Shown here piece by piece: positions 18,106-22,259 of a stretch of 64,000 bases of DNA (within the stretch, counting starts at the first letter, position 1; every line of letters starts with the position of its first letter). A program made the position numbers and the translations under genes. The DNA is from Escherichia coli (GTDB lineage: Bacteria > Pseudomonadota > Gammaproteobacteria > Enterobacterales > Enterobacteriaceae), in assembly GCF_003018255.1 (NCBI RefSeq), contig NZ_CP027440.1. One strand, written 5' to 3'. Below the pieces are notes generated by a model. That model searched no databases. It was given only the letters and a program-made list of their open reading frames with translations, and was not told where the DNA came from.

Positions 18106-19131
18106 ATGAAAAAGATGATGATAGCCACACTGGCTGCCGCCAGCGTGCTGCTTGCCGTTGCAAATCAGGCGCATGCTGGCGCGACGCTTGATGCCGTTCA
18201 GAAAAAAGGGGTTGTGCAATGCGGGATCAGTGATGGATTACCTGGGTTCTCTTATGCCGATGCTGACGGTAAGTTTTCAGGTATTGATGTAGATGTTTGT
18301 CGTGGTGTTGCGGCAGCTGTATTTGGTGACGACACGAAAGTGAAATATACCCCGCTCACTGCAAAAGAACGCTTCACCGCTTTACAGTCAGGGGAGGTGG
18401 ATTTGCTCTCCCGTAATACGACCTGGACTTCATCTCGCGATGCCGGGATGGGAATGGCATTTACCGGCGTCACTTATTACGACGGCATTGGCTTCCTGAC
18501 GCACGATAAAGCGGGACTAAAAAGCGCGAAAGAACTGGATGGCGCTACCGTCTGTATTCAGGCGGGTACTGATACCGAACTCAACGTTGCCGATTACTTT
18601 AAGGCAAACAATATGAAGTACACACCAGTGACTTTCGATCGCTCTGACGAATCAGCGAAGGCACTGGAATCTGGTCGCTGCGATACGCTGGCCTCGGATC
18701 AATCACAACTGTATGCCCTGCGCATCAAATTAAGCAACCCGGCTGAATGGATTGTCTTACCGGAAGTTATCTCTAAAGAACCACTTGGGCCGGTAGTTCG
18801 TCGTGGCGATGATGAATGGTTCTCGATTGTACGCTGGACGCTTTTCGCCATGCTGAATGCTGAAGAGATGGGCATCAATTCCCAGAACGTCGATGAAAAA
18901 GCGGCTAATCCAGCAACACCTGATATGGCACATCTGCTGGGTAAAGAAGGCGATTACGGCAAGGATCTGAAGCTGGATAATAAATGGGCCTTTAACATCA
19001 TCAAACAGGTGGGTAACTACTCGGAAATTTTCGAGCGTAACGTAGGTTCAGAAAGCCCGCTGAAAATTAAACGTGGGCAAAATAATCTCTGGAATAACGG
19101 CGGTATTCAGTACGCGCCGCCCGTGCGTTAA
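18106..19131 (+). CDS. yhdW: Polar amino-acid ABC transporter periplasmic binding protein (AapJ-like)
   Basis: 341-aa ORF with N-terminal signal peptide; family-3 solute-binding fold recognised from translation. Confidence 0.9.
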   Translation: MKKMMIATLAAASVLLAVANQAHAGATLDAVQKKGVVQCGISDGLPGFSYADADGKFSGIDVDVCRGVAAAVFGDDTKVKYTPLTAKERFTALQSGEVDLLSRNTTWTSSRDAGMGMAFTGVTYYDGIGFLTHDKAGLKSAKELDGATVCIQAGTDTELNVADYFKANNMKYTPVTFDRSDESAKALESGRCDTLASDQSQLYALRIKLSNPAEWIVLPEVISKEPLGPVVRRGDDEWFSIVRWTLFAMLNAEEMGINSQNVDEKAANPATPDMAHLLGKEGDYGKDLKLDNKWAFNIIKQVGNYSEIFERNVGSESPLKIKRGQNNLWNNGGIQYAPPVR

Positions 19132-19198
19132 GTCGGTGTGAGGTAACGAGCGTCGCTACGGCGGCGCTCTCTTCAGCGTTATACTTTCCGAGGTTTCT

Positions 19199-20380
19199 AT
19201 GTCTCATCGCCGCTCAACCGTTAAAGGCTCACTCTCCTTTGCCAACCCTACGGTTCGCGCCTGGTTATTCCAGATCTTTGCCGTTGTTGCTGTTGTCGGA
19301 ATTGTTGGTTGGCTATTTCACAACACTGTGACGAATCTCAGTAATCGTGGCATTACTTCAGGTTTTGCCTTTCTGGATCGCGGCGCTGGCTTCGGTATTG
19401 TCCAGCATTTGATCGATTACCAGCAGGGTGATACCTACGGACGCGTTTTCATTGTTGGCTTACTCAATACGCTACTGGTTTCTGCATTGTGTATTGTATT
19501 CGCTTCTGTTCTGGGCTTCTTTATCGGTCTGGCGCGACTTTCGGATAACTGGCTGCTACGAAAGCTTTCCACAATTTATATTGAGATCTTCCGTAATATT
19601 CCGCCGCTGCTGCAAATCTTCTTCTGGTACTTTGCCGTGTTGCGCAATTTGCCCGGACCACGCCAGGCAGTGAGTGCGTTTGATCTGGCCTTTTTGAGCA
19701 ATCGTGGGCTTTATATTCCATCTCCGCAGCTGGGAGACGGATTTATTGCGTTTATCGTGACTGTTGTTATTGCTATAGCCATTTCTGTTGGACTATTCCG
19801 TTTTAATAAAACGTACCAGATAAAGACCGGACAATTGCGCCGAACCTGGCCGGTCGCCGTTATGTTGATCATAGGTTTGCCTTTACTGGCGCAATGGCTT
19901 TTTGGCGCAGCACTACACTGGGATGTTCCAGCCCTACGAGGCTTTAACTTCCGTGGCGGGATGGTTTTAATTCCTGAACTGGCAGCCTTAACGCTGGCGC
20001 TTTCGGTTTATACCTCTGCATTTATCGCCGAGATTATCCGCGCTGGGATCCAGGCAGTGCCTTATGGTCAACATGAAGCGGCACGTTCGCTGGGATTGCC
20101 CAACCCGGTTACGCTACGCCAGGTCATTATTCCCCAGGCACTGCGAGTGATTATTCCGCCGTTAACCAGCCAGTATCTCAACATCGTCAAAAACTCCTCT
20201 CTTGCCGCCGCTATTGGCTATCCCGATATGGTTTCGCTGTTTGCTGGCACCGTGCTGAACCAGACTGGGCAAGCCATCGAGACGATAGCCATGACCATGT
20301 CGGTCTATCTGATTATCAGCCTGACTATCTCGCTGCTGATGAATATCTATAACCGCCGCATCGCGATCGTTGAACGCTAA
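19199..20380 (+). CDS. yhdX: Amino-acid ABC transporter permease (AapQ-like)
   Basis: 393-aa multi-pass membrane ORF. Confidence 0.9.
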   Translation: MSHRRSTVKGSLSFANPTVRAWLFQIFAVVAVVGIVGWLFHNTVTNLSNRGITSGFAFLDRGAGFGIVQHLIDYQQGDTYGRVFIVGLLNTLLVSALCIVFASVLGFFIGLARLSDNWLLRKLSTIYIEIFRNIPPLLQIFFWYFAVLRNLPGPRQAVSAFDLAFLSNRGLYIPSPQLGDGFIAFIVTVVIAIAISVGLFRFNKTYQIKTGQLRRTWPVAVMLIIGLPLLAQWLFGAALHWDVPALRGFNFRGGMVLIPELAALTLALSVYTSAFIAEIIRAGIQAVPYGQHEAARSLGLPNPVTLRQVIIPQALRVIIPPLTSQYLNIVKNSSLAAAIGYPDMVSLFAGTVLNQTGQAIETIAMTMSVYLIISLTISLLMNIYNRRIAIVER

Positions 20381-20389
20381 GGAGTCATG

Positions 20390-21493
20390 ATGACAAAAGT
20401 ATTGCTGTCTCATCCCCCGCGCCCGGCGAGCCATAACTCAAGCCGCGCGATGGTGTGGGTGCGAAAAAATCTGTTCTCCAGCTTGAGCAATAGCCTACTG
20501 ACTATTGGCTGCATATGGTTGATGTGGGAACTGATCCCACCGTTGCTGAACTGGGCATTTTTGCAGGCTAACTGGGTTGGCTCAACGCGTGCCGACTGCA
20601 CAAAAGCCGGTGCCTGTTGGGTCTTCATCCACGAACGATTTGGTCAGTTTATGTATGGGCTTTACCCACACGACCAACGCTGGCGAATTAACCTCGCATT
20701 ACTGATTGGGCTTGTGTCGATCGCACCAATGTTCTGGAAAATACTCCCGCATCGCGGTCGCTATATTGCGGTCTGGGCAGTGATTTACCCACTGATTGTC
20801 TGGTGGCTGATGTATGGCGGTTTTTTTGGTCTTGAGCGGGTTGAAACCCGGCAATGGGGTGGGCTGACGCTAACTTTAATTATTGCATCAGTTGGGATTG
20901 CGGGGGCGTTACCGTGGGGGATCTTACTGGCGTTAGGTCGCCGCTCCCATATGCCGATTGTGCGTATCTTATCGGTCATTTTTATCGAGTTCTGGCGCGG
21001 CGTACCGCTGATTACCGTATTGTTTATGTCTTCGGTCATGCTGCCTTTGTTTATGGCAGAAGGCACCAGTATCGACAAACTGATCCGCGCGCTGGTTGGC
21101 GTGATCCTGTTTCAGTCAGCATATGTTGCGGAAGTCGTGCGAGGCGGATTACAGGCGCTGCCTAAAGGGCAATATGAAGCGGCAGAGTCGCTGGCGTTGG
21201 GTTACTGGAAAACCCAGGGGCTGGTTATTCTGCCACAGGCGTTGAAGCTGGTGATTCCTGGGCTGGTAAATACCATCATCGCACTTTTCAAAGATACCAG
21301 CCTGGTGATCATCATCGGGTTGTTCGATCTTTTCAGTAGCGTTCAGCAGGCAACCGTTGATCCCGCCTGGTTGGGTATGTCGACGGAAGGGTATGTTTTC
21401 GCCGCACTGATCTACTGGATCTTCTGTTTCAGCATGTCACGTTATAGCCAACATCTGGAAAAACGTTTTAACACCGGGCGTACACCGCATTGA
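20390..21493 (+). CDS. yhdY: Amino-acid ABC transporter permease (AapM-like)
   Basis: 367 aa from ATG 20390 ([10 protein letters not shown]); an ATG one codon upstream is an alternative. Confidence 0.9.
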
Positions 21494-21500
21494 GGACACT

Positions 21501-22259
21501 ATGAGCCAAATTTTACTGCAACCTGCTAACGCGATGATTACGCTGGAAAACGTCAATAAATGGTATGGGCAATTCCATGTTTTGAAAAATATAAATTTAA
21601 CCGTGCAACCGGGAGAACGGATCGTTCTGTGTGGCCCTTCTGGTTCCGGTAAATCGACAACCATTCGTTGTATTAATCATCTGGAAGAACATCAACAGGG
21701 ACGGATCGTGGTGGATGGCATCGAACTTAATGAAGATATCCGCAATATTGAGCGCGTCAGGCAGGAAGTGGGAATGGTCTTTCAGCATTTCAATCTCTTC
21801 CCTCATCTGACCGTTCTACAGAACTGTACCCTGGCACCGATTTGGGTACGCAAGATGCCTAAGAAAGAGGCTGAAGATCTGGCGTTGCATTACCTTGAGC
21901 GGGTGAGAATTGCCGAACATGCCCAGAAGTTTCCCGGACAGATTTCTGGTGGTCAGCAGCAACGCGTTGCCATTGCGCGTTCGCTGTGTATGAAGCCGAA
22001 AATTATGTTATTTGATGAGCCAACGTCGGCGCTCGATCCTGAGATGGTGAAAGAGGTGCTGGATACGATGATTGGGCTGGCGCAGTCGGGTATGACAATG
22101 CTGTGTGTAACACATGAGATGGGGTTTGCACGAACCGTCGCTGACAGGGTGATTTTTATGGATCGTGGGGAGATAGTGGAACAAGCTGCACCGGATGAGT
22201 TTTTTGCGCATCCTAAATCAGAGCGTACGAGGGCATTTTTATCGCAGGTGATCCATTAA
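21501..22259 (+). CDS. yhdZ: Amino-acid ABC transporter ATP-binding protein
   Basis: 252-aa ORF; Walker [13 protein letters not shown] signature SGGQQQRV. Confidence 0.95.

Follow-up and report, generated by a model that had tools for sequence, protein, structure and literature searches.

yhdWXYZ in Escherichia coli: an intact operon for a predicted polar amino-acid ABC importer downstream of a sigma-54 promoter

The AapJQMP system of Rhizobium leguminosarum and the BztABCD system of Rhodobacter capsulatus have the gene order binding protein, permease, permease, ATPase in common, and, like YhdWXYZ, combine a binding protein of ~340 aa with permeases of about 370-400 aa. Enlarged permeases are a defining trait of this type. 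Aap is reported to be broad-range and Bzt to take Glu/Gln/Asp/Asn, whereas the enteric orthologue of YhdW, from Citrobacter rodentium, bound essentially Asn only. Moreover, expression of Rhizobium Aap has been tied to nitrogen status through the Ntr system (bioRxiv 10.64898/2026.05.04.722672). E. coli also encodes the paralogous systems GlnHPQ, HisJQMP/ArgT, GltIJKL, ArtPIQMJ and TcyJLN, which have their ABC importer family and domain set in common with YhdWXYZ.

Two enteric copies of the operon have been described. That of E. coli K-12 (b3268-b3271) is the same locus, at about 97.4% DNA identity and with the same neighbours (acrF, yhdV, rrnD), but its yhdW is a pseudogene; phenotypes reported for it concern antibiotics. 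The C. rodentium operon is orthologous, has four genes and encodes an intact binding protein; its YhdX/Y/Z are 85/89/92% identical to those of E. coli (bioRxiv 10.64898/2026.05.04.722672). Here we describe the locus in a window of 64,000 nucleotides of E. coli (contig NZ_CP027440.1), to which all positions refer. The window carries an ordinary, intact wild-type E. coli yhdWXYZ allele that is already known in the literature. The discovery value is therefore small, given that the operon, its regulation and the orthologue's ligand are published. However, YhdWXYZ matters to pathogens in colonising the gut and for their fitness in the kidney, and its conserved sigma-54/NtrC promoter suggests that a transport phenotype may be revealed when nitrogen is limiting.

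Gene content, family and integrity

Positions 18106-22259 hold four co-oriented ORFs on the plus strand, with exactly the limits initially annotated:

18106-19131, plus strand: yhdW, periplasmic substrate-binding protein of 341 aa, signal peptide MKKMMIATLAAASVLLAVANQAHA cleaved before GA
19199-20380, plus strand: yhdX, permease of 393 aa, EAA loop at residue 293
20390-21493, plus strand: yhdY, permease of 367 aa, EAA loop at residue 263
21501-22259, plus strand: yhdZ, ABC ATPase of 252 aa

For yhdY we follow the RefSeq ATG at 20390 (367 aa, as in the closest genome); the first ATG, at 20387, would give 368 aa, and orthologues align over residues 1-367. Domains were assigned with Pfam and NCBIfam profiles. 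YhdW matches SBP_bac_3 (60 bits, cutoff 26.4) and begins with a hydrophobic segment and an AHA-GA cleavage motif. YhdX and YhdY match BPD_transp_1 (PF00528; 60.3 and 87.2 bits) as well as the His/Glu/Gln/Arg/opine-type N-terminal domain TIGR01726 (63.7 and 69.6 bits, cutoff 42.2). YhdZ matches ABC_tran (PF00005; 136 bits), with Walker A GPSGSGKS (45), signature ISGGQ (148), Walker B IMLFDEP (168) and H-loop THE (204). The fold of YhdW is settled by a full-length match to PDB 4z9n from Brucella ovis (E=5e-121, 58% identity, residues 22-341 against 6-328).

The equivalog models of the paralogous importers all score the YhdWXYZ proteins below their own curated cutoffs. YhdZ reaches 318 bits with the GlnQ model, and YhdW 37-83 bits with the GlnH, GltI and TcyJ-type models, where the cutoffs are 303-375. 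Moreover, the NCBIfam profiles of the paralogous permeases span 212-238 positions, and thus YhdX and YhdY have about 150 extra N-terminal residues. The AapJQMP/BztABCD-type resemblance proposed in the initial annotation is upheld by gene order, by subunit lengths (341/393/367/252) and by the match to 4z9n; for YhdW the comparison was with this Brucella AapJ/BztA homologue. Taken together, the four proteins probably form a polar amino-acid ABC importer of type I (binding-protein-dependent) and of the AapJQMP/BztABCD subtype.

The locus was compared with the best 80 of 400 loci from a contig scan of Enterobacteriaceae species. End-to-end tblastn against 82 loci revealed no frameshift or premature stop in yhdW, yhdX, yhdY or yhdZ of the window, and alignments with the orthologues ran from residue 1 to the last in nearly all of the 80 species loci; the four genes are indeed intact, as had been claimed. 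Across ~70 species, dN/dS is 0.015-0.043 for the four genes (0.015 for yhdW), values that point to very strong purifying selection. In the mature part of YhdW, 241/317 residues (76%) are invariant in 81 orthologues. Within the species the locus is found in 5414/5426 complete E. coli genomes. A recombinant or foreign allele was considered, the window being 97% identical to most E. coli, and was rejected: divergence from K-12 is spread evenly over the region (94-99% per 300 nt), indicating ordinary lineage divergence. Apart from the EAA-loop region, in which yhdX and yhdY are paralogous, a repeat search returned short chance matches only.

K-12 yhdW has lost one nucleotide at nt 68 (window position 18173), a lesion that is absent from the window. 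Loss of this A, in codon 23, leaves K-12 with no binding protein. The same deletion allele occurs in 355/5382 complete genomes, and IS insertions were seen in 2/29 sampled genomes (H10, H15). IS elements and frameshifts are reported for the yhd locus of Shigella, and the locus is absent from Salmonella and E. albertii (bioRxiv 10.64898/2026.05.04.722672). Since the allele is intact in most E. coli, this strain included, K-12 is the wrong model for YhdWXYZ.

Promoter and intercistronic hairpin

Five elements flank or separate the first two genes:

17899-17917, plus strand: upstream site 1, TTTTGCGCCAAAATGTGGC, candidate NtrC-type enhancer ~125 nt 5′ of the predicted transcription start
17929-17949, plus strand: upstream site 2, TTTCGCACCATTGCGGGGCGC, conserved, its left half being the NtrC half-site GCACCA
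17964-17976, plus strand: block CCTGTCTACACTC, almost without variation in the phylogenetic footprint, lying between the enhancer-like sites and yhdWp
18010-18025, plus strand: sigma-54 promoter yhdWp, TGGCAC-N5-TTGCT, with GG at 18011-12 and GC at 18023-24
19148-19169, plus strand: covarying RNA hairpin GAGCGTCGC-TACG-GCGGCGCTC between yhdW and yhdX

The predicted start of transcription from yhdWp, near 18036, leaves a 5′ UTR of ~70 nt. The motif TGGCA[CT]-N5-TTGCT is present 91-115 nt 5′ of the ATG in 81/81 related loci with upstream DNA, against an estimated chance expectation of about 6e-4 per 450 nt. A scan for sigma-70 promoters gave 3 matches where 6.2 were expected and was uninformative. 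The window differs from K-12 by one substitution over 17876-18105, the promoter region, and site 1 is the same in both.

The NtrC consensus is TGCACCA-N3-TGGTGCA. Sites 1 and 2 each match it at about 13/17 positions, the GCACCA half-site of site 2 perfectly, and they start exactly 30 nt apart. The phylogenetic footprint of 80 upstream regions gives a conserved core of TTTTGCnCn-N5-TGTGGC for site 1, and the consensus of site 2 across genera is TTTyGCACCA-N5-GGGCGC. In nitrogen-starved K-12 an NtrC ChIP-seq peak has been assigned to yhdWXYZ, which is listed beside hisJQMP and argT among the NtrC-bound loci (PMC4066584); the same paper cites expression data of Zimmer et al. 2000 for yhdWXYZ. On the basis of the consensus matches and the published peak we tentatively assign site 1 to NtrC. 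Moreover, yhdWp has been described as a perfect -24/-12 match and, in reporter fusions, as among the weakest of 12 sigma-54 promoters (PMC7045595), and an RpoN gSELEX peak lies within the yhdV-yhdX spacer (PMC8743547). ZraR (ZraSR) is reported as a further regulator of the operon. The earlier view that the inducing conditions are not established does not hold, as K-12 is documented to induce the operon, by way of NtrC and sigma-54, when nitrogen is limiting.

The hairpin between yhdW and yhdX is conserved as a structure. In 20 genera 99.4% of cells are paired, with compensatory double changes in 8/9 pairs; none of 500 shuffles reach this covariation (0/500), and slid controls are 33-51% paired. 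It was rejected as a canonical intrinsic terminator, the stem having no following T-run. We suggest that it probably shields the yhdW message or acts as a partial terminator behind it, such that the binding protein would be made in excess over the membrane components. In the operon and its leader no Rfam family matched at gathering thresholds, and a search of the same region at a permissive E-value gave three sub-threshold matches only, taken as chance.

Ligand and physiological role

The initial annotation held the substrate to be not established, proposed thermal-shift or ITC screening of purified YhdW, and allowed that a published substrate assignment could overturn this view. Such an assignment now exists in part, in a preprint, for an orthologue and for binding rather than transport. 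[quoted passage not shown] In a thermal shift screen of 20 amino acids asparagine gave the largest response, the others minimal or none, and in ITC there was no valine binding and the cysteine heats were weak and non-specific. C. rodentium yhdW and yhdWXYZ mutants colonise mice more poorly early in infection; by contrast, an asnA asnB yhdWXYZ strain grew as its asnA asnB parent did at 0.5-1 mM Asn in M63 (bioRxiv 10.64898/2026.05.04.722672). NtrC is absent from the text of the preprint. With the negative growth tests done in M63 and NtrC unmentioned, the operon may have stayed uninduced. In uropathogenic E. coli (UPEC), a yhd deletion gave a -2.69 log2 competitive index in mouse kidneys, and the defect was additive with opp, dpp and glt deletions (PMC11032443). 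The former label of a functionally uncharacterised system is thus out of date, given the NtrC regulation, asparagine binding by the orthologue and these host-fitness data.

The biochemistry and infection data of the asparagine-binding preprint are from C. rodentium, not E. coli. As its locus lay outside the best 80 of 400, the identity of C. rodentium YhdW to the window protein is bracketed by other members of Citrobacter: their YhdW proteins are 94-97% identical to that of the window, and their YhdX/Y/Z identities agree with the preprint's. Binding by the orthologue together with the very high conservation of the protein suggests asparagine as the ligand of YhdW here, and invariance of 76% of mature residues across enteric genera makes another specificity in E. 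coli unlikely.

We tentatively hypothesise that YhdWXYZ is the NtrC-induced importer with which E. coli and most Enterobacteriaceae scavenge asparagine, and thereby amide nitrogen, at sub-micromolar concentrations, a reading we consider possible as a whole. As parts of this reading, the role may have been missed owing to the K-12 yhdW frameshift and to physiological tests in M63 only, a medium whose standard recipe contains ammonium and which, if prepared that way, should keep a sigma-54/NtrC promoter silent. Likewise, the covarying hairpin would determine by how much the binding protein is in excess, and a side effect on the accumulation of drugs may become visible in K-12 because YhdW is missing there.

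In the explanation that we prefer and consider likely, nitrogen limitation would lead phosphorylated NtrC, bound ~95 and 125 nt upstream at the two conserved sites, to activate sigma-54 polymerase at 18010-18025; for this step the promoter was recognised by sequence and NtrC binding was observed by others in K-12. YhdW would be exported via its Sec signal peptide and, in the periplasm, would capture a polar amino acid, most probably L-asparagine, with sub-micromolar affinity. By analogy with the family, liganded YhdW would dock on the YhdX-YhdY heterodimer, and ATP hydrolysis by an EAA-loop-coupled YhdZ dimer would drive uptake. Transcription is expected to stop at a hairpin common to yhdZ and convergent rrnD. 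The physiological role may be scavenging of amino-acid and amide nitrogen, adding to host fitness.

A broader transporter must be weighed against this, namely a general L-amino-acid permease like rhizobial AapJQMP, working in uptake and possibly efflux of most L-amino acids and not favouring asparagine. The gene order, the enlarged binding protein and the enlarged permeases are common to YhdWXYZ and the Aap/Bzt type, the 58% identity to the B. ovis homologue is consistent with such a permease, YhdZ falls in the KEGG general L-amino acid orthology group (bioRxiv 10.64898/2026.05.04.722672), and a wide nutrient role would fit the additive UPEC defects seen when opp, dpp and glt are also deleted (PMC11032443). 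However, thermal shift and ITC with C. rodentium YhdW favour asparagine, with minimal or no response to the others, a result that speaks against the wide Aap range yet agrees with one of the four Bzt substrates, and the invariance of mature YhdW across enteric genera argues against a specificity shift in E. coli. We therefore regard a broad permease as unlikely, though it is the strongest competitor to asparagine scavenging.

A system devoted mainly to the homeostasis or efflux of antibiotics (fluoroquinolone, mecillinam), the role reported in K-12, is considerably less probable. [quoted passage not shown] Yet the strain that showed these phenotypes lacks a functional binding protein, the lomefloxacin data are of accumulation rather than a direct measurement of export, and the system is built as a type I importer. 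Moreover, C. rodentium, with a complete system like that of the window, has no antibiotic phenotype (bioRxiv 10.64898/2026.05.04.722672). Lastly, the K-12 allele and IS insertions within E. coli, the lesions in Shigella and the absence from Salmonella and E. albertii could suggest that the locus is decaying or dispensable, with no selected function in the window strain. This is largely refuted and very improbable, in that the four genes are intact in the window, selection against change is very strong over about 70 species, promoter and hairpin are conserved, and fitness defects in vivo are reported for two pathogens (C. rodentium and UPEC).

The 3′ boundary with rrnD

Downstream of yhdZ the window contains:

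22282-22309, both strands: G+C-rich 12-bp hairpin terminator common to convergent yhdZ and rrnD
22322-22437, minus strand: rrfF-type 5S rRNA (Rfam RF00001, 90.2 bits), last gene of convergent rrnD

The initial annotation had the operon end at the rrnD terminator, and this is confirmed: yhdZ ends 22 nt from the shared hairpin, which lies 12 nt past the 3′ end of rrfF. The hairpin has a fold energy of -25.8 kcal/mol (z = -5.2), with a strong T-run in the rrnD direction (minus strand) and a weaker one in that of yhdZ (plus strand). Alignment to the K-12 rrnB and rrnD tails identifies it as the rrnB T2 equivalent. The rrnD tail of the window is without the T1-like terminator that K-12 has; in K-12, 168 extra bases (the T1-like terminator plus spacer) lie between yhdZ and rrfF. 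The rRNA operon has the rrnD-type order 16S, tRNA x2, 23S, 5S, tRNA, 5S, and a convergent 5S gene follows yhdZ in 72/80 species loci.

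Gene content, family and integrity of yhdWXYZ

The interval 18106-22259 is filled exactly by four co-oriented ORFs, separated by gaps of 67, 6-9 and 7 nt; antisense ORFs within it are short and without support.

18106-19131, + strand: yhdW, ORF of 341 aa
19199-20380, + strand: yhdX, ORF of 393 aa
20387-21493, + strand: yhdY, ORF of 368 aa from the first of two adjacent ATGs
20390, + strand: RefSeq start of yhdY in the annotation of the closest genome, 3 nt later (367 aa)
21501-22259, + strand: yhdZ, ORF of 252 aa

Pfam and NCBIfam identify YhdW as a family-3 solute-binding protein, YhdX and YhdY as BPD_transp_1 permeases and YhdZ as an ABC ATPase, and together with the ORF list this bears out the gene set of the initial annotation. 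TIGR01726 (His/Glu/Gln/Arg/opine permease N-terminal domain) exceeds its cutoff in both permeases, each of which carries one EAA coupling loop. Walker A, signature, Walker B and H-loop were all located in YhdZ, and the N-terminal signal sequence of YhdW ends between AHA and GA. None of the four products passed an NCBIfam equivalog model. yhdWXYZ thus stands apart within the polar amino-acid importer family and is not a Gln, His, Glt, Art or Tcy copy.

A periplasmic amino-acid-binding protein of Brucella ovis (PDB 4z9n), named BztA by Borde et al. (bioRxiv 10.64898/2026.05.04.722672), matches YhdW over residues 22-341 with 58% identity (E=5e-121). The runner-up structures, e.g. the Glu/Asp-binding protein 2ia4/2vha and PEB1a (2v25), reach only E values of about 1e-16 to 1e-21. 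yhdWXYZ shares its gene order and its enlarged binding protein and permeases with the AapJQMP/BztABCD type, so the proposed resemblance to AapJQMP holds; other authors have equated aapJQMP with yhdWXYZ. By analogy, yhdWXYZ would work like a polar amino-acid ABC importer of the Aap/Bzt type.

We scanned one genome per species and retained the best 80 of 400 loci, from Citrobacter, Enterobacter, Kosakonia, Lelliottia, Cedecea, Trabulsiella, Atlantibacter and others. In nearly all of these, the orthologues align with the four window proteins from first to last residue, and careful end-to-end alignment found no frameshift or stop in the window genes, which are thus intact as claimed. Against about 70 species, median dN/dS was 0.015 for YhdW, 0.043 for YhdX, 0.037 for YhdY and 0.017 for YhdZ. 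YhdW is better conserved than the permeases (dN/dS 0.015 versus about 0.04; cross-genus identity 90-99% versus 76-89%), contrary to a prior expectation of the binding protein as the faster-evolving component; this difference suggests that its ligand or docking surface is under tight constraint. Of the 317 residues of mature YhdW, 241 do not vary across 81 orthologues.

Within E. coli, at least 80% of the segment is present in 5414 of 5426 complete genomes. The closest is strain 20Ec-P-124 (99.7%), most others being about 97% identical. Differences from K-12 are spread evenly over the region, as in lineage divergence and not as in a mosaic. The K-12 annotation gives yhdW as a pseudogene with a frameshift; alignment shows that it lacks one A, equivalent to window position 18173 (nt 68, codon 23, in the signal peptide), which is present in the window. 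A 60-nt probe found the K-12 deletion allele exactly in 355 of 5382 complete genomes, so that intact yhdW is the common state. The locus is inactivated sporadically in E. coli: in strain G3/10 the binding-protein gene is split by IS1, and in strain EEC_W5 an ISEc66 transposase lies inside the matched region.

The upstream region and nitrogen control

Directly 5′ of yhdW lie a 430-nt spacer and the small lipoprotein gene yhdV, with acrF also upstream. yhdV adjoins yhdW in 77 of 82 related loci (dN/dS 0.041) and has no Pfam or NCBIfam family match. The features of this region are listed below; the two conserved sites and the two blocks come from footprinting across 80 upstream regions.

17454-17675, + strand: yhdV, 73-aa lipoprotein gene
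17899-17917, + strand: conserved site 1, core TTTTGCnCn-N5-TGTGGC
17929-17949, + strand: conserved site 2, core TTTyGCACCA-N5-GGGCGC, left half an NtrC half-site
17964-17976, + strand: nearly invariant block CCTGTCTACACTC, between the enhancer-like sites and the promoter
18010-18025, + strand: sigma-54 promoter, consensus TGGCAC-N5-TTGCT with correct GG/GC spacing
18038-18050, + strand: nearly invariant block GCCACAGACAGGT, predicted transcript 5′ end or leader start

Sites 1 and 2 are exactly 30 nt apart, start to start, and the sigma-54 motif lies 91-115 nt 5′ of the ATG in all 81 related loci having upstream sequence. The window differs from K-12 by one mismatch over 17876-18105, so K-12 regulation data are transferable. 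In nitrogen-starved K-12, an NtrC ChIP-seq peak mapped on NC_000913.2 was assigned to yhdWXYZ, and earlier NtrC-dependent expression data are cited there (PMC4066584). yhdWp is a perfect -24/-12 match, yet weak in reporter fusions (PMC7045595), and an RpoN gSELEX peak falls within the yhdV-yhdX spacer (PMC8743547). ZraSR control and induction by lomefloxacin have also been described (bioRxiv 10.64898/2026.05.04.722672). Given these published data, the initial view that inducing conditions are not established was wrong.

Ligand and physiology

yhdWXYZ is an ordinary wild-type operon and already known. When Citrobacter rodentium YhdW was screened by thermal shift against 20 amino acids, the shift was largest with asparagine; by ITC, Asn bound with a Kd of 0.37 uM, binding of Val was not detected and Cys gave only weak, non-specific heats (bioRxiv 10.64898/2026.05.04.722672). 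Substrate binding is thus assigned for this orthologue, as binding rather than transport, and this preprint result on an orthologue overturns only in part the earlier statement that the substrate in E. coli is not established. Transfer of the Asn ligand to the window YhdW is well supported, if indirect, because Citrobacter species other than C. rodentium share 94-97% (YhdW), 85-87% (YhdX), 90-92% (YhdY) and 92-94% (YhdZ) identity with the window, and the C. rodentium YhdX, YhdY and YhdZ identities in the preprint agree with these. Since the C. rodentium orthologue binds Asn only, a broad Aap-like substrate range seems doubtful.

The standard M63 recipe contains 15 mM ammonium sulfate and the sigma-54/NtrC promoter is conserved across the family, so yhdWXYZ would be expected to be off in this medium. 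All physiological Asn tests of Borde et al. used M63, of which the composition is not given, and NtrC and sigma-54 are nowhere mentioned (bioRxiv 10.64898/2026.05.04.722672). There, operon deletion in a C. rodentium asnA asnB auxotroph had no effect on growth or competition at 0.5-1 mM Asn. [quoted passage not shown]

In mice, faecal loads of C. rodentium yhdW and yhdWXYZ mutants were reduced on days 4-6. Deletion in K-12, which is without the binding protein, raised lomefloxacin and mecillinam susceptibility and increased lomefloxacin accumulation about twofold; no comparable phenotype was seen with the complete system of C. rodentium (bioRxiv 10.64898/2026.05.04.722672). In uropathogenic E. 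coli, Yhd deletion gave the strongest kidney defect of four peptide/amino-acid importers (-2.69 log2), additive with opp, dpp and glt deletions (PMC11032443).

Hairpins and the rrnD boundary

Two hairpins flank the permease and ATPase genes.

19148-19169, + strand: intercistronic RNA hairpin between yhdW and yhdX, 9-bp stem, 4-nt loop
22282-22309, both strands: terminator-like G+C-rich hairpin, 12 bp, better T-run on the rrn strand

In the first, pairing holds in 99.4% of cells over 20 genera, and 8 of the 9 pairs have undergone compensatory double changes. None of 500 shuffles equalled this, and pairing in slid controls was 33-51%. It lacks a T-run and matches no Rfam family. Probably, this hairpin is a stabiliser or partial attenuator raising binding-protein output or excess, as commonly found for importer operons of this kind.

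Downstream, on the opposite strand, lies an rrnD-type operon (16S, two tRNAs, 23S, 5S, tRNA, 5S). The second hairpin is far more stable than its shuffled versions (z = -5.2) and lies between the yhdZ stop at 22259 and the convergent 5S end at 22322, confirming that the rrnD terminator is where the operon ends. A convergent 5S gene lies 3′ of yhdZ in 72 of the best 80 of 400 species loci, and the remaining 8 contigs end within 235 nt of yhdZ, most assemblies breaking at this point. The yhdWXYZ-rrn adjacency is thus old and conserved across Enterobacteriaceae.

Compared with loci L001 (5860-6089), L083 (4896-5123) and L084 (158-457), window 22260-22321 is a short rrnD tail with an rrnB-T2-like hairpin only. 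The K-12 tail has the rrnB-like order of T1-like hairpin, spacer and T2-like hairpin, whereas the window, 20Ec-P-124 and C. amalonaticus lack its 168 nt of T1 and spacer; C. youngae has the long form, like K-12. On either side of the 168-nt stretch stands a copy of AACTGCCAGACATCAAAT, one being the 5S 3′ end and the other its remnant. Long and short tails are each seen in both E. coli and Citrobacter, a pattern suggestive of repeated deletion or gene conversion between these two copies. The short tail is found in about 6 of 29 sampled E. coli genomes.
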